A stretch of 33,711 bases of DNA from the NCBI RefSeq assembly GCF_004010195.1, contig NC_057718.1, positions 53,880,720 to 53,914,430 of the forward strand. The letters are read 5' to 3'. The stretch comes from Chiloscyllium plagiosum (taxonomy: Eukaryota). The notes beneath the pieces were generated by a model, which was not told where the DNA came from, searched no databases, and saw only the letters and a program-made list of their open reading frames with translations. Below are positions 1-33,711 of this stretch, one piece after another; position 1 is the first letter of the stretch, and the number at the start of each line of letters is the position of its first letter. The translations under genes were made by a program, and so were the position numbers.

Positions 1-177
1 TCTCTGGATTCATTTAAGAAAGTGTTGGATAGAGCTCTCAAGGATAGTGGAATCAAGGGTTATGGAGATAAGGCAGGAACAGGATACTGATTAAGGATGA
101 TCAGCCATGATCATATTGAATGGTGGTGCAGGCTGGAAGGGCAGAATGGCCAACTCCTGCACCTATTGTCTATTGTC
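1..177 (+). mobile_element. CR1 LINE 3' end (ORF2 C-terminus + 3' UTR), runs off the window start
   Basis: Encodes ...SLDSFKKVLDRALKDSGIKGYGDKAGTGY* and ends in a (CTATTGT)n tail; about 94-95% identical by eye to 1667-1843 and 2824-3000. Confidence 0.93.
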
Positions 178-397
178 CGCCTTTCCTGACTGCCACCCGC
201 AGACAGCGTGCAGCCCCAATCCCTTTCTTTCCGCCTTTCTTGCTGATTTTGGCAGCGCTCCGCTCTCCTCCCCTCCGTGTCTCGTGCCTGCAGGAGACTG
301 ATGCCAGGCACAGCAGCAGCAGCAAAAATAACCTGCCGCTCCATTGCCTGGCACAAGACAAGTGCAGAGGGGTGACTTGAGCAGCCACTGCTGGCGG
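178..397 (-). other. 5S rDNA downstream non-transcribed spacer (GC/CpG-rich, with (GCA)n microsatellite at ~309-323)
   Basis: GC-rich, CpG-retaining sequence directly downstream of the 5S terminator, unlike the AT-rich background; short trinucleotide tract. Confidence 0.65.
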
Positions 398-402
398 AAA
401 AA
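398..402 (-). terminator. RNA polymerase III terminator (T5) of the 5S gene
   Basis: aaaaa on + strand = TTTTT on minus strand at the 3' end of the 5S sequence (...GTAGGCTTTTT). Confidence 0.85.
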
Positions 403-520
403 GCCTACTGCACCTGGTATTCCCAGGCGGTTTCCCATCCAAGTACTAACCAGGCCTGAGTCTGCTTAGCTTCCGAGATCAGACGTGATCGGGCGTTTTC
501 AGACTAGTATGGCCGTAGGC
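401..520 (-). rRNA. RNA5S: 5S ribosomal RNA gene (full 120 nt; variant, possibly pseudogene)
   Basis: Reverse complement: GCCTACGGCCATACTAGTCTGAAAACGCCCGATCACGTCTGATCTCGGAAGCTAAGCAGACTCAGGCCTGGTTAGTACTTGGATGGGAAACCGCCTGGGAATACCAGGTGCAGTAGGCTT. Colinear with vertebrate 5S, with box A, intermediate element and box C; helix I GCCTAC/GTAGGC and helix II AGTCTG/CAGACT pair. Confidence 0.97.
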
Positions 521-805
521 GCTGGCCCCTGCCTTTTCTCCCTACTTCAAGGCGTGCTGGCCAGCCACATTTTCTTTCTTGCTCTTTCTCTTTATCCCCT
601 TTGGCTTTTTTTTCTCTTTTCTCTTTGCTCTTCCTCCTCCGTGCGTGCTTCCCTCCCTCCGTCCCTCCAGCTGCCTTTCAGGCCAGCCCTTGCCCACCAG
701 GCTCCTGTAGTCTCCCACATCCCCACACAGGCGAACTGCAAGCCCTCCCCCTGCTTCATAGGGCCGCCGCCTGCATTCTCTCATCCTTCCACACTCCTCC
801 ACCCC
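521..805 (-). other. 5S rDNA upstream spacer (TTGAAGT at about -30; purine-rich tract on minus strand)
   Basis: GC-rich flank contiguous with 5S +1; AT-rich element at the usual -30 position; CT-rich low-complexity tract ~570-680. Confidence 0.6.
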
Positions 806-1852
806 TCCATTTCGGAATGCCGGGCACTGGCCAGTGGGGTACCGCACGGATCAGTACTGGGACCGCAGCTTTTTACAATCTATCTTCAGGATATACAAGA
901 TGGTATTAGCAATAACATTCGCAAATTTCATCAGCTGGGTGGCAGGGTGAAATGTGATGAGGATGTTAGGAGATTACAGGGTGACCTGGACAAGTTAGGT
1001 GAGTGCTCAGATGCATGGCAGATGCACTTTCACGTGGATAAATGGATCCTTATCCACTTTGGTGGCAAGAACAGGAAGGCAGATTACCACCTAAGTGGAA
1101 TCAATTTAGGTAAAGGGGCAGTACAGAGAGATCTGGGGGTTCTTGTACACCACTCAATGAAGGTAAGCATGCAGGTACAGCAGGTAGTGAAGAAGGCTAA
1201 TAGCATGCTGGCCTTCATAACAAGAGGGATTGAGTATAGAAGCAAAGAGGTTCTTCTGCAGCTGTACAGGGCCCTGGTGAGACCACACCTGGAGTACTGT
1301 GTGCAGTTCTGGTCTCCAAATTTGAGGTGAGACATTCTGGCTATTGAGGGAATGCAGCGTAGGTTCACGAGGTCAATTCCTGGAATGGCGGGGCTACCTT
1401 ACGCTGAAAGACTGGAGCGACTGGGCTTGTGTACCCTTGAGTTTAGAAGACTGAGAGGGGACCTGATTGAGACATATAAGATTATTAAAGGTTTGGACAC
1501 TCTGGAGGCAGGAAACATGTTTCCGCTGATGGGTGAGTACCGAACCTGAGGACACAGCTTAAAAATACGGGGTAGACCATTTAGGACAGAGATGAGGAGA
1601 AACTTCTTCACCCAGAGAGTGGTGGCTGTGTGGAATGCTCTGCCCCAGAGGGCAGTGGAGGCCCAATTTCTGGATTCATTTAAGAAAGAGTTGGATAGAG
1701 CTCTCAAGGATTGTGGATTCAAGGGTTATGGAGATAAGGCAGGAACAGGAGACTGGTTAAGGATGATCAGCCATGATCATATTGAATGGTGGTGCAGGCT
1801 CGAAGGGCAGAATGGTCTACTCCTGAACCTATTGTCTATTGTCTATTGTCTA
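806..1852 (+). mobile_element. 5'-truncated CR1 LINE (RT C-half, ORF2 tail, 3' UTR), inactivated
   Basis: SGVPHGSVLGPQLFTIY (RT motif), LYRALVRPHLEYCVQFWSP, RRLRGDLIETYKI, RNFFTQRVV; stops at 1328-1330 and 1547-1549; FADD motif lost; (CTATTGT)3 tail. Confidence 0.95.
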
Positions 1853-2637: not shown

Positions 2638-3002
2638 GTTATGAAAGGATTGGATACTCTGGCAGAAGGAAACATATTTCCACTGATGGGTGAGTGCCGA
2701 ACCAGAGGACACAGCTTAAAAATACGGGGTAGATCATTTAGGACAGAGATGAGGAGAAACTTGTTCACCCAGAGAGTGGTGGCTGTGTGGGATGCTCTGC
2801 CCCAGAGGGCAGTGGAGGCCCAGTCTCTGGATTCATTTAAGAAAGAGTTGGATAGAGCTCTCAAAGATAGTGGAATCAAGGGTTATGGAGATAAGGCAGG
2901 AACAGGATACTGATTAGGAATGATCAGCCATGATCATGTTGAATGGCGGTGCAGGCTCGAAGGGCTGAATGGCCTACTCCTGCACCTATTGTCTATTGTC
3001 TA
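2638..3002 (+). mobile_element. 5'-truncated CR1 LINE 3' end (same family as 1-177 and 806-1852)
   Basis: MKGLDTLAEGNIFPLMGECRTRGHSLKIRG...FTQRVVAVWDALP; same 3' UTR and (CTATTGT)n tail. Confidence 0.93.
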
Positions 3003-12399: not shown

Positions 12400-14067
12400 G
12401 GACTGAATCTAACTCTAAAATGAAGTCAGTCCTGTTTGAGTAATCATTCATTGGAATAACATCACCAATGACAAAGATCCATACTGAGGTATTCTGTGAC
12501 TGCCCTTCTTGGAGTCTTCATGTCTCACTGTATGGAGGATGTGGATGTTGACTGACCACATTACCAACAATCTGTTTCATTTCTGATGTTCCCCATAGAG
12601 ATTCATTGGAACCATGTCCAATGGATCCAGGCTCAGCAGGGGTCATTGTCACGCTTGCTGTATGTATTGCTGCAAAGGCACACAGAGGAATGCAAGAGGA
12701 ACAGATGTACCAAGAAGCCACAGACCAGCAGCAACTTCCAGCATTGTCAAACATGAAGAAGTCAAAGCTGAAGGATCCCTCAGGATGGCAAGGAGATGGA
12801 GGAGGGCCAGAGTCTGTCATCCACAATGTCATTTCATCCACATGACTGAGGTTCAATGCCACCGTAGACCGAGGAGGTCCAAGGACACTGTCACAAAACT
12901 ATGCCATCTGCTGGAGTTGGGATTTATGAATTGAAGGGCTATCCAGACTGCCGGCAGTGTTGAAGCTTTCTGCCACTGGCTGCTTCCAGGGATCCATGGG
13001 CATCTCTGTAGGATCCCACCAATACGTTGAGGCTGTTACTGGTGCAGTTTGTACCAGATCCCACTGCTTCAGCTCATTTCCCCAAAGCCGTGACGGTGCT
13101 GCAGCCCGGCAGTAGGTTTTGCCTCCTGAGGATGAAGTTCTGATGCTGCAATGGTCTGAACGATGGAGAATTTGCAGTACAGTCCAGCCAGAATATGCTG
13201 AATAGCTAGAGCATGCTGGGCTGTGCACAACTGGGATGTGCAAACAGGTGAATTAATGGATGCTGGAGGGTACGGAGAGTGACAGCTCCCTACTTACAAG
13301 GAGCTACTTCGAAGGAACATCATCTTCTGCGTGACAGAACGCTGCAGCATTGAGCACAATGAGCCAGACAGGACTTAATTTGCAGCTTCTTCCAATTCAT
13401 CAGAGCTGGTGCAGTGATCACTTATTGACTGTCAATTTGTTGCTGCTCAAAAAGCAAGCAGTCTCTGTATACTCCTAGCAGCAAATTCAGCATTTCTTTG
13501 CTTGTTCTTTCTTCATGTTTGTAGTTGATGAATAAAAGCAAACATTTTCAATCATTTGAAGGCTTTCCATTATATGATGTTTGCAAGTTGAAGGATGGAA
13601 AGACATTTGGCAGCACCAGACAAGAGGCCAAATGCTAAGATGGGGGATGAGCTTCTAAGATGGGGTAACACAAAGGAAGGGTAAACTGTGTAGCTTGTTT
13701 CTTAAATAGCAATACATTTATGAAAGTGCACTTATTTCACAATGAAATATCAACCTAGCCACCGATGTGCCCTCAGAAGCGTTTATATTTAATTCCTTCC
13801 CATTATGTGGACTGTGAGGACAGATCCTGGCTGACAGTGCGTGACCAGTGCTTCAAATATTGTGCTTGACTTCAAGGATCCCAGAAAGTTCCAACAGTGG
13901 CAAGTATTTCCGTCACTGTTAAGTGGATGATACCATGAGCATGGTGTCATAGTAACATGAAGCATCATTAATGAGGCAAGCTACAGAGAACAGAGTAAGA
14001 AAACTTGCCAGAGCTCATGGAATTTGCCAATATTGACACTCAGTCAATCCCTGATAAGGTTTAGCCC
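12400..14067 (+). mobile_element. Harbinger (PIF/HARBI1-like) DNA transposon remnant with internally deleted transposase (~12606-13420)
   Basis: RVCHPQCHFIHMTEVQCHRRPRRSKDTVTKLCHLL (N-terminal HTH region), FSATGCFQG, LRMKF*C, LQYSPARIC*IARACWAVHNW (cf. LQYSP..V..I...CCALHN). Tentative imperfect TIRs GGACTGAATCT (12400) and AGGTTTAGCCC (14057-14067). Confidence 0.7.
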
Positions 14068-17930: not shown

Positions 17931-18594
17931 AGGATTGTCTATATTAATTCTATTTTTTACTCAGAGAGAAGGGAATCTGTTAATTATATATTAAGATATT
18001 TAATATTATGCAAATAGTAGACTTTGACTGGGGAATAATTTGACCTCCCCCCCCCTATAAAAATAGACAGTTGAAAATTGTGGTCATTGTGTGAAGGAAT
18101 CTGTGTGATATGACCACAATGAAGGTTTTATGAGTAAAGTACTTATGTTTCTATGTAAAAAAAACTTGCAAAAGTTTTAAAAGCGTCTTTTTTGAAATAA
18201 TAGCAGGGCAAAAAGAGTTCACTAATAAAAGTTTAGGACCAAAATTAGTATGGATTCACCAATGAGAGAAAAACACGCAGAAAATATGCTACAATGTATT
18301 TTTTTAAACTTATATTGACATGAAAGACAGCACAATGCAGGAATTTATGACTAAACTGTGTGCACAAAGAAAATGCTAAAATTTAGAGTTATATTCTAAC
18401 CTTACAAAACAAAACTCACTCTCACTAAGGAAAGACTTGACCAAGCATGATTATTCAGCAATATTTACCTTCTGGGATATGTGAGGCACAGGTAACAAGG
18501 CATTTGGCATTCCATTACATTTCTTAAAATTACAGGAATTTGAAGGGATCAAAACCAAATTAGGTTATTAAGAGGAGACATCTCATTACACATT

Positions 18595-19003
18595 AGGAAT
18601 ATTCCTCTGAATTCTGGTCTCCTTCCTAGAGAAAGGATGTTGTCAAGCTTGAAAAAGTTCAGAAAATATTTACAAGAATATTGCCAGAGTCGGAGGGTTA
18701 GAGCTAGAGGAAGAAACTGATTAGACTGAGGGTATTTTCCCTCGAGTATTGGAGACTGAGGGATGACCTTATAAAAGGTTGTAAAATCATGAAGTGCACA
18801 TTTAGGCTGAATAGCCAAGGTCTTTCCCTAGACATAGTGGAGTCCAAAACTAGAGCGCATAGGTTTAAGGTAAGAGTGGAAAGATTTAAAAGGGACCTAA
18901 GGGCAACATTTTCACACAGACGGTGATGCATGTATTGAATGACCTGCCAGAGGAAGTGGTGAAGGTTGGTACAATTACAACATTTAAAAGGCATCCAGAT
19001 GGA
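18595..19003 (+). mobile_element. CR1 ORF2 C-terminal fragment, cut at the 3' side by a Penelope fold-back element
   Basis: FWSPS*RKDVVKLEKVQK.FTR.LP and NDLPEEVVKVGTITTFKRH; 3' UTR missing. Confidence 0.88.
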
Positions 19004-19012
19004 AATAAGAAT

Positions 19013-19277
19013 AGTCAAAAGGTGTGGCACTGGAAAAGCAAAGCAGGTCAGGCAGCATCCGAGGACCAGGAGAGTAAACCTTTCTGGCATAAGCCCTTCA
19101 TCAGGAATGTGGAGGAAGATGGGGGCTGAGATGGGGGTGGAGGACAGGCAATGAAGGGCTTATGCCTGAAACGATGACTCTCCTGCTCCTTGGATGCTGT
19201 CTGACCAGCTGTGCTTTTCCAGCATCACTCTTTTTGACCCCTACTCTCCAGCATCTGTAGTCCTCACTTTTTTCTAG
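19013..19277. mobile_element. Inverted pair of Penelope-like pLTRs (fold-back mini-element 1)
   Basis: 19013-19101 is approximately the reverse complement of 19151-19240; ~50-nt G-rich loop; the plus arm extends to the pLTR end GTCCTCACTTTTTTCT. Confidence 0.88.
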
Positions 19278-19662: not shown

Positions 19663-19945
19663 AAGAAAGTGAGAACTGCAGATGCTGGAATCAGAGTGGA
19701 AAGTGAGGTGCTGGAAAAGCGCAGCAGGTCAGGCAGCATCCGAGGAGCAAGAGAATTGACATTTCGGGCATAAGTCCTTCATCAGGAATGAGCACTGACC
19801 TATGTGGGGATGCGAGCATTGATCAGACCAAAACCAATCCAAGCTTGCCAAAGGTCATTCTTGATGAAGGGCTTATGCTGGAAACATTGATCCTCCTGCT
19901 CCTCTGATGCTGCCTGACCTGCTGTGCTTTTCCAGCACCACACTC
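19663..19945. mobile_element. Inverted pair of Penelope-like pLTRs (fold-back mini-element 2) with 15-bp TSD
   Basis: Arms 19702-19791 and 19855-19945 are reverse complements around a 63-nt spacer; flanked by perfect ATAAAAGAACATTGG at 19648-19662 and 19946-19960. Confidence 0.92.
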
Positions 19946-21699: not shown

Positions 21700-22180
21700 G
21701 GTACAGGGAGACCAGAGGTTGGCTAATGTGATGCAACTATTTAAGTATGGTGGTAAGGAAAAGATGGAACTAGAGACCAGTGAGCCTGACATCAGTGATG
21801 GGTAAGTTTGGAAAGGCAAGGACTGATTAGGGATAGTCAGCGTAACTTTGTGCATGGGAAATCATGTTTCACTAAATTGATCGAGTTTTTTAAAGGAGTA
21901 GCAAAGAGAATTGTTGAGGGCAGAATAGTGGACGTGATCTATATGGACAAAGTTCCTCCTGATAGACTGGTTAGCAAGATTACGTCACATGGAATACAGG
22001 AAGAACTAACCATGACGCTATGACTCTATAATATAGTTCTTAGGGCTAAAGGGATCAAAGGGAATCGAACAAAAGCAGGAACAGGGTATTGAGCATGATG
22101 ATGAATCATGATCGTATGGAGTAGGAGAGCAAGTTCGAAGAGCCGAATGGCCTACTCCTGTTCTTATTTTCTATATTCCT
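21700..22180 (+). mobile_element. Two adjoining CR1 fragments (RT N-half with internal deletions; a separate 3' UTR)
   Basis: LERQGLIRDSQRNFVHGKSCFTKLIEFF...VDVIYMD, then a ctatgactctat tail, then a GAATGGCCTACTCCTG-type 3' end. Confidence 0.82.
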
Positions 22181-23730: not shown

Positions 23731-24177
23731 TTGCTGTGGTTCTGTTCGCCGAGCTGGAAGTTTTTGTTGCAAACGTTTCGTCCCCTGTCTAGGTGACATC
23801 CTCAGTGCTTGGGAGCCTCCTGTGAAGGGCTTCTGTGGTGTTTCCTCCGGCATTTATAGTGGCCTGTCCCTGCCGCTTCCGGTTGTCAGTTTCAGCTGTC
23901 CGCTGTAGTGGCCGGTATATTGGGTCCAGGTCGATGTGTTTGTTGATGGAGTTTGTGGATGAGTGCCAAGCTTCTAGGAATTCCCTGGCTGTTCTTTGTT
24001 TCGCTTACCCTATAATGGTAGTGTTGTCCCAGTCAAATTCATGTTGCTTGTCGTCTGCGTGTGTGGCTATTAGGGATAGCTGGTCGTGTCGTTTCGTGGC
24101 TAGTTGATGTTCATGGATGCGGATCGTTAGCTGTCTTCCTGTTTGTCCTATATAGTGTTTTGTGCAGTCCATGCAAG
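23731..24177 (-). mobile_element. Penelope-like element B (GIY-YIG C-half + terminal repeat), CpG-rich and young
   Basis: CMDCTKHYIGQTGRQLTIRIHEHQLA...FDWDNTTIIG*AKQRTAREFLEAW; TATAAA box followed by a hammerhead motif. Confidence 0.9.
23769..23808 (-). ncRNA. Minimal hammerhead ribozyme in Penelope B
   Basis: GCA-CUGAGGA-U-GUCACC(UAGACA)GGGGAC-GAAAC-GUU^UGC: CUGANGA and GAAA core, stem I GCA/UGC, palindromic stem III ACGU. Confidence 0.75.
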
Positions 24178-25125
24178 GACCCTTCGGCCAGGGAAAACAG
24201 CCCTAGCCTGTTCAGCCTCTCCCTATAGCTCAAATCCTCCAACCCTGGCAACATCCTTGTAAATCTTTTCTGAACCATTTCAAGTTTCACAACATCTTTC
24301 TGATAGGAAGGAGACCAGAATTGCTTGCAATATTCCAACAGTGGCCTAACCAATGTCCTGTACAGCCGCAACATGACTGCCCAACTCCTGTACTCAATAC
24401 TCTGACCAATAAACGAAAGCATACCAAATGCCTTCTTCACTATACTATCCACCTGCAACTCCACTTTCAAGGAGCTATGAACTTGCAGTCCAAGGTCTCT
24501 TTGTTCAGCAACACTCCCGAGGACCTTACTATTAAGTGTATAAGTCCTGCTAAGATTTGCTTTCCCAAAATGCAACACCTCACATTTATCTAAATTAAAC
24601 GCCATCTGCCACTTCTCAGCCCAATGGCCCATCTTATCAAGATCCCATTGAAATCTGAGGTAACCTTCTTCGCTGTCCACTACACTTCCAACTTTGGTGT
24701 CATCTGCAAACTTACCAACTTTTATGCTCGCATCCAAATCATTTATATAATTGTAGATACATTCTATTTTGTTTAAAAAGCCTGCAATCTGTAGGCAGTC
24801 AATTCATGTGACATTCTGTAAATTCCTACTTTGTAAGTAGAACCAGTCTGACTCAAGGTTGGAATACAGGCAGACGCTAACCTTACACCTTTAATGCATT
24901 GTCTGAGCTGAGATGTCACCTTTTTTAATAAAATCTTAAGTTATCTTGGCAATGTGACTTGAAAGAAGTTCTGTGATTTACATATTAATTAATCAAAACT
25001 TGAAACCCATTCTAAAAGATGAAGGACTTTACAGTAGTCTATGTTTGTTTAGTATATTATATCAGTTGCATGATGCTATGATCTTGTGCTATAAATTCTG
25101 TGTCCTATGATCCTGCCCCACTAGC

Positions 25126-25340: not shown

Positions 25341-26266
25341 AATGATAAAGATGTCACCAATGGTATAAATGCCACAAAGTCCCAGAAGTGGCAAGTCCTT
25401 CTACATCTCTTGCTGTATTACCCCAGGAGAGGGGCATTGACTAACCCAGTTGCTCTCTGGCTGCACATCTCCCACGATAGACATGTCTTATCGTGTTCAT
25501 GTGATAGCTGCAATGCTTATTGTGAGTTGTAAGTATCCTGTTGTTTTAAATTCTAGCCATTAATTTGGAGTTCCTCCCCTTGCCCCACGAAGATTGCTTC
25601 TTAGATGAATCCCTAACCAGGAATTCTAGGACAAGTCTTTGTGTCTTTATGAAGTCTGTAACTGCCAGGTATGACTTGTCTTTCTAGCCCACATTGCTAC
25701 CTCTGCATTTTTAGCTCAGTCTGAAATTAAGACATTAAGCCTGGTATGCTGTTTCTCCTTTGTTAATCTTTTTCATCAGTTCTTGCTGACTGCTTGTTTG
25801 TTCAAGCACTTGCAGCAACTGACTATCTACATGTGCAGTTTTTAAAGCTGTACTTTCACTTGGTCTTCCGGAAATGTCTTTTCCAGTATCTTATTACCAT
25901 TTTACCTTGTGCAATTAAGTAACAATGTCCCATGCTGATTATTATGTGGTATTTGGGTGGAAGGGTTCTGCAATCATTTCTCTTTCCTTTTTGTTAACTT
26001 AATCACTTTTTTTCAGCGGCGGTTGGAGTGGGAGGAGGGACAGCGAGGACCGGAGGCCCGACAGGAAGGTATATTGGTGAAGCCCACACTGAGCAGGTGC
26101 GGACATGGGACCGCTGGGTAAGTGAAGCTTTATATTTGGGTATTGCATTTCCTGAAACACTCATAATGTCCTCCTCCTCTAACCAAAAAATAGGTTCGGT
26201 GTGTCAATTGGTAAGGTAACTAGATTTTCTTTAGTGTTTTAGTCGGCTCATTGGGAATTTAGAATA

Positions 26267-27190
26267 GTGGGAATGGAGGTTAGGGCAGTTGAATGTTCCT
26301 CCTCCAGGATGTGGGTGGTAAGGGTCACTAGTTGTGTCCCTGCTGACCACACCTGTGGGAAATGCACCCAACTCCAACTCCTTGAAAATCGGATTAGGGA
26401 ACTGGAGTTACAGCTGGATGAATTTCGGATCATTCAGGAGGCAGATGGGAGCTACAGGGAGGTAGACACACCTCAGGTAAAAGAAGAAGGTAGATGGGTT
26501 TCCATCAGAGGACAGAAAGGGAACCGGCAGGCAGTGCAGGGATCCCCTGTGGCCATTCCCCTCAACAACAAGTATACTGTTTTGGATACTGTTGGGGGAA
26601 ATGACTTACCGGGGTAAGCAATGGTGCACAGGTCTCTGGCACAAAGTCTGTCCCAGCTGCTCAGAACAGAAGGGGGAAGAGGAGCAGAGCATTAGTTATT
26701 AGGGTCTCCATAGTTAGGGGGACAGAAAGAAGGTTCTGTGGGAATGAGAGAGACTCATAGTTGGTGTGTTGCCTCCCAGGTGTCAGGGTTTGTGATGTCT
26801 CTGTTCGTGTTTTCGGATCCTTGGTGACGAGGGTGAGCAGCCCCAAGTCGTGGTCCACACTGGCACCAATGATATAAATAGGAAGAGAGATGGGGATTTA
26901 AAGCAAAGATTCAGGGAGCTAGGGTTGAAGCTTAGAGCTAGGACAAATACAGTTGTTATCTCTGGTTTGTTGACTATGCCATGTCCTCGCGAGGTGAGGA
27001 ATAGGGAGAGAGAGAAGTTGAACTCGTGGTTACAGGATGGTGCAGGAAGGAGGGTTTTAGATTCCTGGATAATTCGGGCTCTTTCTCGGATAGGTGGGAC
27101 CTCTACAAACAGGATGGTCTTCATCTGAACGAGAGGGGTACCAATATCCAGGAGATATTGCTAATACACTTCGGGTGGGGTTAAACTAAT
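26267..27190 (+). pseudogene. CR1 ORF1 pseudogene (zinc finger + coiled coil + SGNH esterase)
   Basis: CSSSRMW...CGKC, LENRIRELELQLDE, ALVIRVSIVRG (decayed GDS), VVVHTGTNDI, DGLHLN; stops and frameshifts. Confidence 0.88.
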
Positions 27191-27289
27191 TCAGCAGGGG
27201 CATGGGAACTGAAATTGGAGTTCAGGAGGTTGAGAGTAGTGAGGTCAGAACTAAGATTTCAAGATCGCAAGAAGGCACTGGCAGGCAAA

Positions 27290-30045
27290 ATGTTGGTTTG
27301 AAGTGTATGTACTTCAATCCCAGGAACATCTGGAATAAGGTGGGTTAACTTGCAGCATGGGTTGGTACCTGGGATTTCGATCTTGTGGCCATTTCAGAGC
27401 CATCTGTAGAGAAGGGACAGGAATGGTTATTACAGGTTATTGCAGATGTTTGAATAAGAACAGAGAAAATGGTAAAAGAGGGAATAGTGTGGTACTGTTA
27501 GTCAAGGATAGTATTACGGTGGCAGAAAAGACATTTGAGGACTCCTCTGCTGAGGTAGTATGGGTTGAGATTAGTAACAGAAAAGGAGTGGTTACCTGTT
27601 GGGAATTTTCTATAGACCTCCGAATAGCTCCAGAGATGTAGAGGATAGGATAGCAAAGATAATCGTCGATGGGAGCAAGAGTGACAGGATAGTTATTATG
27701 GGGGACTTTAACTTTCCAAATATTGACAGGGAATACTATAGTTCAAGTAGTTCAGATGGGTCAGTTTTTGTCCAATGCTTGCAGAAGGGTTTCCTGACAC
27801 AGTATGTAGACAGGCCAACAAGGGGCAAGGCCACATCAGATTTGGTACTGGGTAATGAACCCGGCCAGCTGTTAGATTTGGAGGTGGGTGAGCACTTTGG
27901 TGATAATGATCACAATTTGGTTATGTTTACTTTGGTGATGGAAAGGGATAGGTATATACTGCAGGGGAAGAGTTATAGCTGGAGGAAAGGCAATTATGAT
28001 GTGATTAGGCAAGATTTAGGATGCATAGGATGGGGAAGGAAATTGCAGGGGATGAGCACAATACAAATGTGGAGCTTATTCAAGGACCAGCCAGTGCGGG
28101 TCCTTGGTAAGTATATACCGGTCAGGCGGGAAGGAAGTGGTCGAGCGTGGGAACCGTGGTTCACTAAGGAAGTTGAATCACTTGTCAAGAGGAAGAAGAA
28201 GACTTATGTTAGGATATGATGTGATGGCTCAGTTAGGGAGTTTGAGAGTGACAAGTTAGTCAGGAAAGACCTAAAGAGAGAGCTAAGAAGAGCTAGAAGG
28301 GAACATGAGAAGTCATTGGCGGATAGGATCAAGGAAACCCCTAAGGCTTTCTATAGCTATATCAGGAATAAAAGAATGACTAGAGTAAGATTAGACCAAT
28401 TAAGCATAGTAATGGGAGGTTGTGCATGGAGTCAGAGGAGATGGGGAAGCGCTAAATGAATACTTTTTTCAGTATTCACACTAGAAAAAGACAATGTGGT
28501 TGAGGAGAATACTGAGATACAGGCTACTAGACTAGATGGGATGGAGGTACATAAGGAGGAGATGTTAGCAATTCTGGAAAGTGTAAAAATAGATAAGTCC
28601 CCTGACCGGATGGGATTTATCCTAGGATTCTCTGGGAAGCTAAGGAGGAGATTGCCGAGCCTTTGGCCTTGATCTTTATGTCGTCATTGCCTACAGGAAT
28701 AGTGCCAGAAGACTGGAGGATAGCAAACGTTGTTCCTTTATTCAAGAAGGGGAGCAGAGACAACCCTGGAAATTATAGACCTATGACCCTTACTTCGGTT
28801 GTGGGTAAAGTGTTGGAAAGGGTTATAAGAGATAGTATTTATAATCACCTAGAAAGGAATACGTTCATTAGGGATAGTCAACACTATTTCGTGAAGGGTA
28901 GGTCATGTCTCACAAACCTTATTGAGTTCTTTGAGAAGGTGACCAAACAGGTGGATGAAGATAAAGCAGTTGATGTGGTGTATATGGATTGTAGTAAGGT
29001 GTTTGATAAGGTTCCCCACGGTAGGCTATTGCACAAAATGCAGAGACATGGGATTGAGGGTGATTTAGCGGTTTGGATCAGAAATTGGCTAGCTAAAAGA
29101 AGACAGAGGGTAGTGGTTGATGGGAAATGTTCATTCTGGAGTTCAATTACTAGTGGGGTTCTGTAAGAATCTGTTTTGTATCCACTGTTGTTTGTCATTT
29201 ATATAAATGACCCGGACAAAGGTACAGAAGGGTGGGTTAGTAAATTTGCGGTTAACACTAAGGTTGGTTGAGTTGTGGATAGTGACAAAGGATGTTGTAG
29301 GTTACAGAATAAGCTGCAGAGCTGGGCTTCGAGGTGGCAAATGGAGTTTAATGCAGAAAAGTGTGAGTTGATTCACTTTGGAAGGAGTAACAGCAATCCA
29401 GAGTACTGGACTAATGGTAAGATTCTTGGTTGTGTAGATGAGCAGAGAGATCTCGGTGTCCAGGTACATAGATCCTTGAAAGTTACTACCCAGGTTGATA
29501 GGATTGTTAAGAAGGCACACAGTGTGTTAGCTTTTATTGGGAGAAAGATTGAATTTTGGAACCATGAGATCATGCTGCAGCTGTCCAAAAGACTGGTGTG
29601 ACTACATTTGGAGTATTGTGTGCAGTTCTGGTCACCACATTATAGGAACAATGTGGAAGCTTTGGAAAGGGTTCAGAGGAGATTTACTGGGGTGTTGCCT
29701 GGTATGGAGGGAAGGTCTTACGAGGAAAGGCTGAGGGACTTGAAGCTGTTTTCGTTAGTGAGAAGACAGTTGAGAGGTGACTTAATTGAGACATATAAGA
29801 TAATCAGATGGTTAGATAGGGTGGACAGTGAGAGCCTTTTTCCTCAGATGGCGATGGCTAGCACAAAGGGATATAGATTTAAATTGAGGGGTGATAGATA
29901 TAGGACAGATGTCAGAGGTAGTTTCTTTACTCAGAGAGTGGTAGGGGTGTGGAACACACTGGCTGCAATAGTAGTAGACTTGCCAACTTTAAGGACATTT
30001 AAATGGTCATTGGATAGACATATAGATGCAAATGGAATAGTTTAG
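27290..30045 (+). pseudogene. CR1 ORF2 pseudogene (APE endonuclease + reverse transcriptase)
   Basis: LKCMYFN, YRPPN, MGDFNFP, DLVLGN, NDH, PGNYRP, VDVVYMD..KVFDKVPH; catalytic FADD reads FAVN (~29245-29256); many stops and frameshifts. Confidence 0.93.
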
Positions 30046-33231: not shown

Positions 33232-33354
33232 CAAACCAGTGAACACATGGAGGAGAATGTTCCACAAAGTAGTGAGATCTAGAGAGCAGGCTTTGCACCC
33301 TTTTCTTTCCCTTTCTGCTGGAAGGTAAGGAAATTGTACCGAGACTGGAAATGT

Positions 33355-33379
33355 GGCAGCATGGTGGCTCAGTGGTTAG
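33355..33379 (+). mobile_element. HE1 SINE head (A-box only)
   Basis: GGCAGCATGGTGGCTCAGTGGTTAG directly joined to CR1. Confidence 0.7.
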
Positions 33380-33711
33380 GTGACCTTATAGAGGTTTACA
33401 AAATTATGAGGGGCATGATAGGATAAATAGACAAGGTCTTTTTCCTGGGATCAGGGAGTCCAGAACGAGAGGGCATAGATTTAGGGTGAGAGGGGAAAGA
33501 TATAAAAGAGACCTAAGGGGCAACTTTTTCACGCAGAGGGTGATACATGTACGGAATGAGCTGCCAGAGGATGTGGTGGAGACTGGTACAATTGCAACAT
33601 TTAAGAGGCATTTGGATGGGTATATGAATAGGAAGGGTTTGGGGGATATGGGCCGGGTGCTGGCAGGTGGGACTAGATTGGGTTGGAATATCTGGTCGGC
33701 ATGGACAGGTA
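33379..33711 (+). mobile_element. 5'-truncated CR1 3' region, runs off the window end
   Basis: GDLIEVYKIMRG and DLRGNFFTQRVIHVRNELPEDVVETGTIATFKRHLDGYMNRKG; same family as 23604-24750. Confidence 0.93.

Follow-up and report, generated by a model that had tools for sequence, protein, structure and literature searches.

Transposon insertions in the spacers of 5S rDNA are described as 'relatively frequent', with LINEs among those known from fish, and LINE and Ty3-gypsy pieces are tabulated for the 5S non-transcribed spacer of Diplodus sargus (accessible part of PMC10946416). The same source lists SINE3, OS and 5S-Sauria as 5S-derived SINEs and Mutsu as a 5S-inserting LINE. CR1 pieces have been recorded in a crocodilian 45S spacer (available sections of PMC8961926 and PMC8789306). 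The 5S rDNA of elasmobranchs falls into classes I and II, and a long class of ~1,700 bp, with an only partly sequenced spacer, occurs in the stingray Paratrygon aiereba, the GC content of stingray 5S spacers being 56–60% (Pinhal et al. 2011, PMC3123226, in its accessible sections); the term 'CR1' has 0 occurrences in the text of that paper. In human cells, 5S circles exist, and their reintegration as orphons has been proposed (PMC3225859, accessible part). A literature search over listings and the openings of abstracts, with few subscription papers among them, found no description of a CR1-bearing shark 5S unit.

The locus described here stands at the start of a 33,711-nt stretch of shark DNA (Chiloscyllium plagiosum), hereafter the window. 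In order along the window, it consists of the 3' end of a CR1 element (copy A, 1–177, + strand), a GC-rich spacer (178–401), a 5S gene in antisense orientation (402–520), a further spacer (521–805) and a 5'-truncated CR1 element (copy B, 806–1850, + strand), with 628 nt between A and B made up of 224 nt of spacer, the gene and 285 nt of spacer. Both CR1/spacer junctions are direct, without background DNA in between; GC content in 100-nt bins is 0.53–0.62 over 101–900 and 0.32–0.38 over 1801–2300. Copy B is followed by AT-rich background DNA (1851–2638, GC 0.34) into which the 5S unit does not continue, and then by a short 3' fragment of the same CR1 family (copy C, 2639–3000, + strand), used as a local control. 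The three CR1 3' ends are co-oriented and in register; that of A starts at 1, that of B at 1667 and that of C at 2824, giving spacings of 1666 and 1157. The original prediction had given this order with its coordinates, had placed the two flanking CR1 3' ends 1,666 bp apart in the same orientation and had seen no AT-rich DNA between CR1 and spacers, and Rfam, blastn and the GC bins agree with it throughout. As in the fish 5S spacer insertions, a retroelement piece abuts the spacer and the gene is intact; unlike those cases, which are cloned amplified units from bony fish, the element here is of the CR1 clade, the host is a shark and a single unit is seen.

The 5S gene was identified by Rfam model RF00001, which matches the minus strand from 520 to 402 over model positions 1–120 (108.2 bits, the gathering score being 38). 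No other Rfam match was obtained in the window, and in the same scan a second 5S gene was absent from the 33,711 nt, so that no tandem repetition is visible there. The gene is directly followed by a terminator of five T (402–398), in line with the earlier claim of a complete gene with terminator. It is of elasmobranch type: a comparison by eye with the genes in PMC3123226 shows no difference between its 3' 77 nt and two class I clones of Paratrygon aiereba, and a single-base difference from Rhizoprionodon class I, the alignment used covering these 77 nt while the 5' 42 nt lie outside it. A non-standard pair in helix I, flagged by Rfam, was considered as a sign of decay and this was rejected, since the base is common to elasmobranch 5S genes. 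Judged by its sequence the gene is undamaged, not decayed, and Pol III could still transcribe it.

Both spacers, assigned to the minus strand with the gene, are GC-rich. The one downstream of the gene (178–401) has 59% GC and contains a second run of five T (328–324) by a short GCT repeat; the one upstream (521–805) has 58% GC and is pyrimidine-rich on the + strand. Compared with the classes in the accessible part of PMC3123226, the locus has a gene whose 3' 77 nt match class I and spacers of 58–59% as against 56–60% GC. By eye and without statistics, the first ~20 nt past the terminator (381–401) look like the start of a stingray class I spacer, and the second T-run with the GCT repeat (310–328) looks like the start of a class II spacer. 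The ends of the two spacers do not overlap each other, the only matches being of <=19 nt (E 0.09–0.32). A search with a 22-base motif from the spacer found 0 matches among contigs from metagenomes, prokaryote genomes and viruses, collections that are poor in shark DNA. In addition, blastn of both spacers gave 0 matches against 48 metagenome loci retrieved with the reverse transcriptase (RT) fragment, which are distant CR1s with 29–83% identity over short stretches. An open frame of 286 codons (470–1330) extends from 5S sequence across the spacer and into the RT frame of CR1; it was taken as chance, protein matches being confined to the RT part. Likewise, frame 524–1075 has matches via the RT part only, the best identity among the 150 matches listed being 66%, and none of the 150 profile matches listed covers the spacer-coded part at high identity. 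For the antisense frame across the junction of spacer and B, a search with five candidates ended in 0 matches.

Copies A, B and C belong to a family for which we take CR1 to be the proper clade name. The frame at 806–1327 has as its closest relative an ORF2 protein of Chiloscyllium punctatum (P0121, 84% identity), followed by ENA proteins and ray proteins at 66–76%; most relatives of this frame carry PF00078, and three Pfam queries with the CR1 fragments themselves gave 0 matches. The ORF2 RT is homologous to that of CR1 elements, and the 5' truncation together with a 3' tail of short tandem repeats is as in a CR1-clade LINE. B starts at residue 287 of P0121, aligned from its first residue, and its tail ends at 1850 with three units of 7 nt, as against two each in A and C. 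Copy A, cut by the start of the window, holds the last ORF2 codons, the 3' UTR and its two tail units, and is without any CpG. From 1052 to 1850, B is an ordinary young dead copy with stop codons at 1328 and 1547. Copy C is 92.6% identical to B over 364 nt. Family copies above 85% were found in the window only at 1–177, 806–1850 and 2639–3002, with none in the remaining 30.7 kb; the other three of the six blastn matches in the window are at 65–75%.

Older CR1-like sequence is present elsewhere in the window. A long broken element lies at 26243–30045 on the + strand (48% identity to B over 29143–30039), and its pieces resemble what we take to be ORF1, endonuclease and RT. Fragments occur at 18591–19028, 22031–22174, 24111–24803 and 33331–33711, with the window ending inside the last. 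Two pairs of one ~90-nt repeat, inverted and 49 and 63 nt apart, at 19014–19238 and 19700–19944, may be short inverted-repeat elements or head-to-head SINE pieces. The stretch 12501–13500 is GC-richer (0.48–0.49), has three overlapping frames of 111–126 codons and is possibly an exon or a repeat. CR1-type RT proteins P0001, P0226 and P0239 (51–69% identity) are filed under Aeromonas cavernicola, Carnobacterium maltaromaticum and Klebsiella pneumoniae; they come from short contigs and are probably animal DNA in bacterial assemblies.

SINE3-type elements have a CR1-like 3' tail. Like the 5S-derived SINEs and Mutsu, the shark locus links 5S sequence to a non-LTR element; unlike the 5S-derived SINEs, its 5S gene is complete, antisense to the tail and uninterrupted, with 285 nt of upstream spacer. 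A SINE3-type element was rejected on account of the antisense orientation of 5S to the CR1 tail and the retained upstream spacer, and a Mutsu-type insertion because the gene is uninterrupted and separated from the CR1 ends by 224 and 285 nt. A processed 5S pseudogene was also rejected, given the upstream spacer at 521–805 and a gene that matches those of elasmobranchs. The earlier statement that the gene is not a retroposed 5S transcript is accordingly upheld, given the antisense orientation of the gene to CR1 and the presence of a spacer on either side.

We propose, with a probability of about 0.5, that a single CR1 insertion took place in a 5S spacer and that recombination with a genomic CR1 supplied the 3' end of B, either at the edge of an array or in an orphon that popped in. 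In this scheme, 178–805 would be one near-intact unit of the shark's multicopy 5S rDNA; the gene, its terminator and both spacers are seen in the window, and the multicopy state is inferred. The non-transcribed spacer of such a unit would have received a 5'-truncated CR1, and the junction of A's tail with the spacer and that of the spacer with the 5' end of B would accordingly be the two ends of a single insertion, circularly permuted. The 3' end of B would have been acquired by homologous recombination with another, genomic member of this young family, for B's tail runs into unique DNA and its 3' end should hence derive from a CR1 outside the array. The dead CR1 would serve as spacer filler and as homology only. 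Two routes to this arrangement, which we rate about evenly, may be envisaged. Either an array extends to the left of the window and the locus is its last unit, or a one-unit circle of 5S plus CR1 recombined into a genomic CR1, leaving a CR1-spacer-5S-spacer-CR1 orphon. Like the orphons treated in the accessible part of PMC3225859, the locus is one unit, flanked by its two spacers, with no array in view; that text proposes illegitimate or array-homologous integration, whereas in the shark the homology would be a LINE within the spacer. The hypothetical unit of 1.67 kb, suggested originally as a possible composite repeat, has the size of the stingray long class (~1,700 bp in the accessible part of PMC3123226), a match that may be coincidence. 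The original prediction had offered an array edge and recombination between CR1 copies as separate options; of all the readings these two agree best with the anatomy, and they are treated as one here.

Several features of the junctions bear on this proposal. Both are direct although the family is otherwise absent above 85% from 30.7 kb; a single insertion with one crossover explains the two of them, and chance would need two exact hits. Non-overlapping spacer ends are expected if these ends adjoined before the insertion. TCC (3 nt) stands both to the left of B, where it overlaps the spacer, and at the 3' junction of A, and no duplication is found between B's own flanks. CR1-clade elements have a target duplication peak of 3–5 bp (accessible part of PMC4245944), and the TCC match lies within this range; it speaks at most weakly for one insertion, being a short match in C-rich DNA that may well be chance (estimated at ~1/3). 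Over the 177 nt shared by all copies, A and B differ at 10 positions, A and C at 9 and B and C at 13, close to the 10 or so of 177 first reported. That figure had been entered as a caveat, strong homogenisation not being evident; it does not weigh against the array-edge option, because a last unit borders unique DNA at its 3' end and must there have taken its CR1 from outside the array. An A–B divergence like that between independent copies is also expected if B is a recombinant.

The same observations were weighed for two independent CR1 insertions into a 5S orphon or the end of an array, by chance or through a liking of the family for 5S spacers. The family is young and locally clustered, with three copies in 3 kb, and the distance between A and B is that of independent copies, as two insertions would have it. 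B would, however, have had to hit the exact border between 5S and unique DNA, its left flank being spacer and its right flank background with no duplication between them, and copy C lies in ordinary DNA; we therefore consider two insertions very unlikely. The preference of this family for 5S spacers, raised originally as a further option, finds no support from a single locus.

Alternatively, a single retrotransposition event could have built the locus, B being primed in the tail of an older A and a 628-nt 5S piece being captured at the 5' junction, as DNA or as antisense read-through RNA, with error-prone fill-in; the result would be a single-copy orphon, and the standard unit would be free of CR1. 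The last 17 nt of A recur at the end of B, as a duplication with the tail as target would give, and this is also simply the end of the family. TCC would then be microhomology at B's truncated 5' end, which is typical of LINE 5' junctions (PMC4245944, accessible part), A and B would again be as different as independent copies, and a tract of unusual substitutions described below adjoins the 5' junction. Against capture, extra 5' nucleotides at fish LINEs are several in number and largely copied from the flank, not hundreds from elsewhere (same accessible part of PMC4245944), and a gene-centred piece no longer than one unit would have to be chance. Capture is thus thought unlikely, although it is also compatible with the data from sequencing runs that follow.

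The stretch 150–960 was sampled as 83 words in public sequencing runs; overlapping words are not independent, the kinds of library are guessed and one of the runs holding the stretch may be the source sample. It was held wholly or partly by 20 of the 24 runs listed, from nine studies, and 17 of the 24 hold half or more of the words. Ten runs under four organism labels, deep and shallow alike, have shares of 0.69–0.72, two of them with only 77 million letters, and four runs of 34–140 million letters have shares of 0.46–0.60; the maximum share in any run listed is 0.72. Two runs with small shares (X13, 0.25; X14, 0.19) were left out of the argument, X21 and X22 hold none of the words, and X23 and X24 are absent from the index. 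As words wholly in 5S or wholly in CR1 supply just 0.27 of the stretch, spacer words must be held by the runs. The 17 of 24 runs with half or more of the words are the basis for inferring that the spacers are multicopy, and a high spacer copy number is suggested by the small data sets that already hold spacer words; the 5S spacers are thus probably multicopy rDNA.

Whether the CR1 junctions share this copy number bears on the single-insertion proposal. The ceiling for a run without any CR1 or junction word is 0.766 +/- 0.046, and the plateau of 0.69–0.72 close to it fits gene and spacers without CR1 words; this favours a standard unit free of CR1, which speaks against a single insertion, and is compatible with the captured orphon, in which no CR1 word need be held. 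The same plateau is given equally by ~1.1% of scattered private differences over a stretch that is multicopy throughout. Contigs made from runs drop rare variants, which is enough alone to explain shares below 1. The missing tandem neighbour also counts against the single-insertion proposal. The 0 matches of the spacer motif in three collections, the 150 listed profile matches without high-identity cover of the spacer-coded part and the 0 of 240 proteins with the coding lesion discussed below do so weakly, these collections being poor in shark DNA.

The 5' part of copy B in the RT domain (806–1051, + strand) departs from the rest of the element. Where columns are conserved among relatives, 19 of 59 within 806–1075 and 13 of 152 beyond show a difference in B, and the best split point of B is near 1052, a split matched by none of 300 shuffles. 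Compared with P0121, which is of the same family, B differs at 20 of 82 residues in the tract and at 23 of 233 downstream (p 0.002). Counting only changes without a match in any close relative and dropping two deletion codons, 15 of 82 codons are changed in the tract as opposed to 12 of 233 downstream (p 0.0008). With ancestral codons inferred from protein, the tract has 14 single-step changes, of which 13 are transversions and 10 replace a purine by C on the + strand; the downstream part has 11, with 4 transversions and 1 purine-to-C change. Against an expected purine-to-C share of ~0.10, taken from the window's own repeat pairs, 10 of 14 has p ~5e-8 (5e-5 with the expectation doubled), the category having been picked post hoc. 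No frameshift is present in 806–1051.

An older CR1 relic was rejected as the origin of this tract, as ageing gives transitions (109 of 156 changes in the other repeat pairs of the window) and the tract has 1 in 14; its composition, without drift toward the C-rich makeup of the spacer, was counted against the same reading. A naturally variable stretch of RT was rejected as the full cause, since it explains only part of B's excess: between P0121 and seven intact relatives, this stretch differs at 17–25 of 85 residues as against 14–29% downstream, which is similar or somewhat higher. The pattern points to an assembly error patch or to error-prone synthesis, rather than ageing, in view of the 109 of 156 transitions in other repeat pairs. 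REV1-like polymerases are error-prone and insert C, and one could speculate that such an enzyme made the + strand. If the changes are real, A should share the damage at the 5' end of B under the single-insertion proposal, and this counts against it: A has 3 private changes in 177. The KFHQLGG lesion originally noted is indeed present, as a three-codon deletion in frame at the FADD motif, and lies inside the tract. FADD or FVDD is present in 84 of the first 120 related proteins and the KFHQLGG pattern in 0 of 240, from collections poor in shark DNA. Its proposed use as a marker for related loci is doubtful, owing to its position within a tract of error-like substitutions.

These substitutions also bear on an assembly artefact, in which a collapsed 5S unit would have been joined here via CR1 homology or gap filling and 806–1051 would be poorly supported consensus. 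Transversions (13 of 14), purine-to-C changes (10 of 14) and the intact frame of the tract are as such an error would leave them. The differences between A and B include 7 transversions of 10, compared with 47 of 156 across ten further pairs of repeats in the window (p 0.014); the 3 private changes of A relative to B and C are all transversions and 5 of the 6 private to C are transitions, the difference between A plus B and C in transversions alone not being significant (p 0.12). Both ends of the window sit in 3' parts of CR1, as is often seen at contig breaks, and no run exceeded 0.72 of the words. However, junction homology of <=3 nt is too short for an overlap mis-join, so that the junctions are probably present at some place in the genome; the gene, at a distance of 300 nt, is free of such errors, and the loss of rare variants from run contigs can by itself account for the shares. 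We judge an artefact decidedly unlikely.

Wider movement of the unit is conceivable in two forms. In one, a dispersed composite retroelement of an antisense 5S unit and the 3' kilobase of CR1 would be spread by CR1 reverse transcriptase; this was the retrotransposition variant of the recombination option in the original prediction and is kept here only as a rival. An intact CR1 tail, one repeat longer than that of A, terminates the unit, which retains the 3' end thought to be needed by CR1-type enzymes. Set against this, the + strand shows no evident promoter, the Pol III gene faces the opposite way and a second locus was not found in metagenome, prokaryote, viral and protein searches, making such an element highly improbable. 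In the other, a 5S class with a 1-kb piece of a still-abundant CR1 family in its spacer would, through its intact genes, seed new loci genome-wide as dispersed CR1-5S-CR1 cassettes with the same two breakpoints, by homology or by means of the CR1 tail and enzyme, and to this we give only a small chance.

The meaning of the locus depends on the copy number of its junctions. Should they be single-copy, it would be an ordinary orphon, and should the tract at 806–1051 be an error, it would be a caution about the assembly. If both junctions prove to be multicopy, a CR1-bearing class would be added to elasmobranch 5S rDNA, and the locus would provide a sequence-level case of 5S genes reaching new chromosomal sites in fishes; the LINE piece in the spacer would offer homology to many genomic copies, and its breakpoints would let the route be counted and dated.
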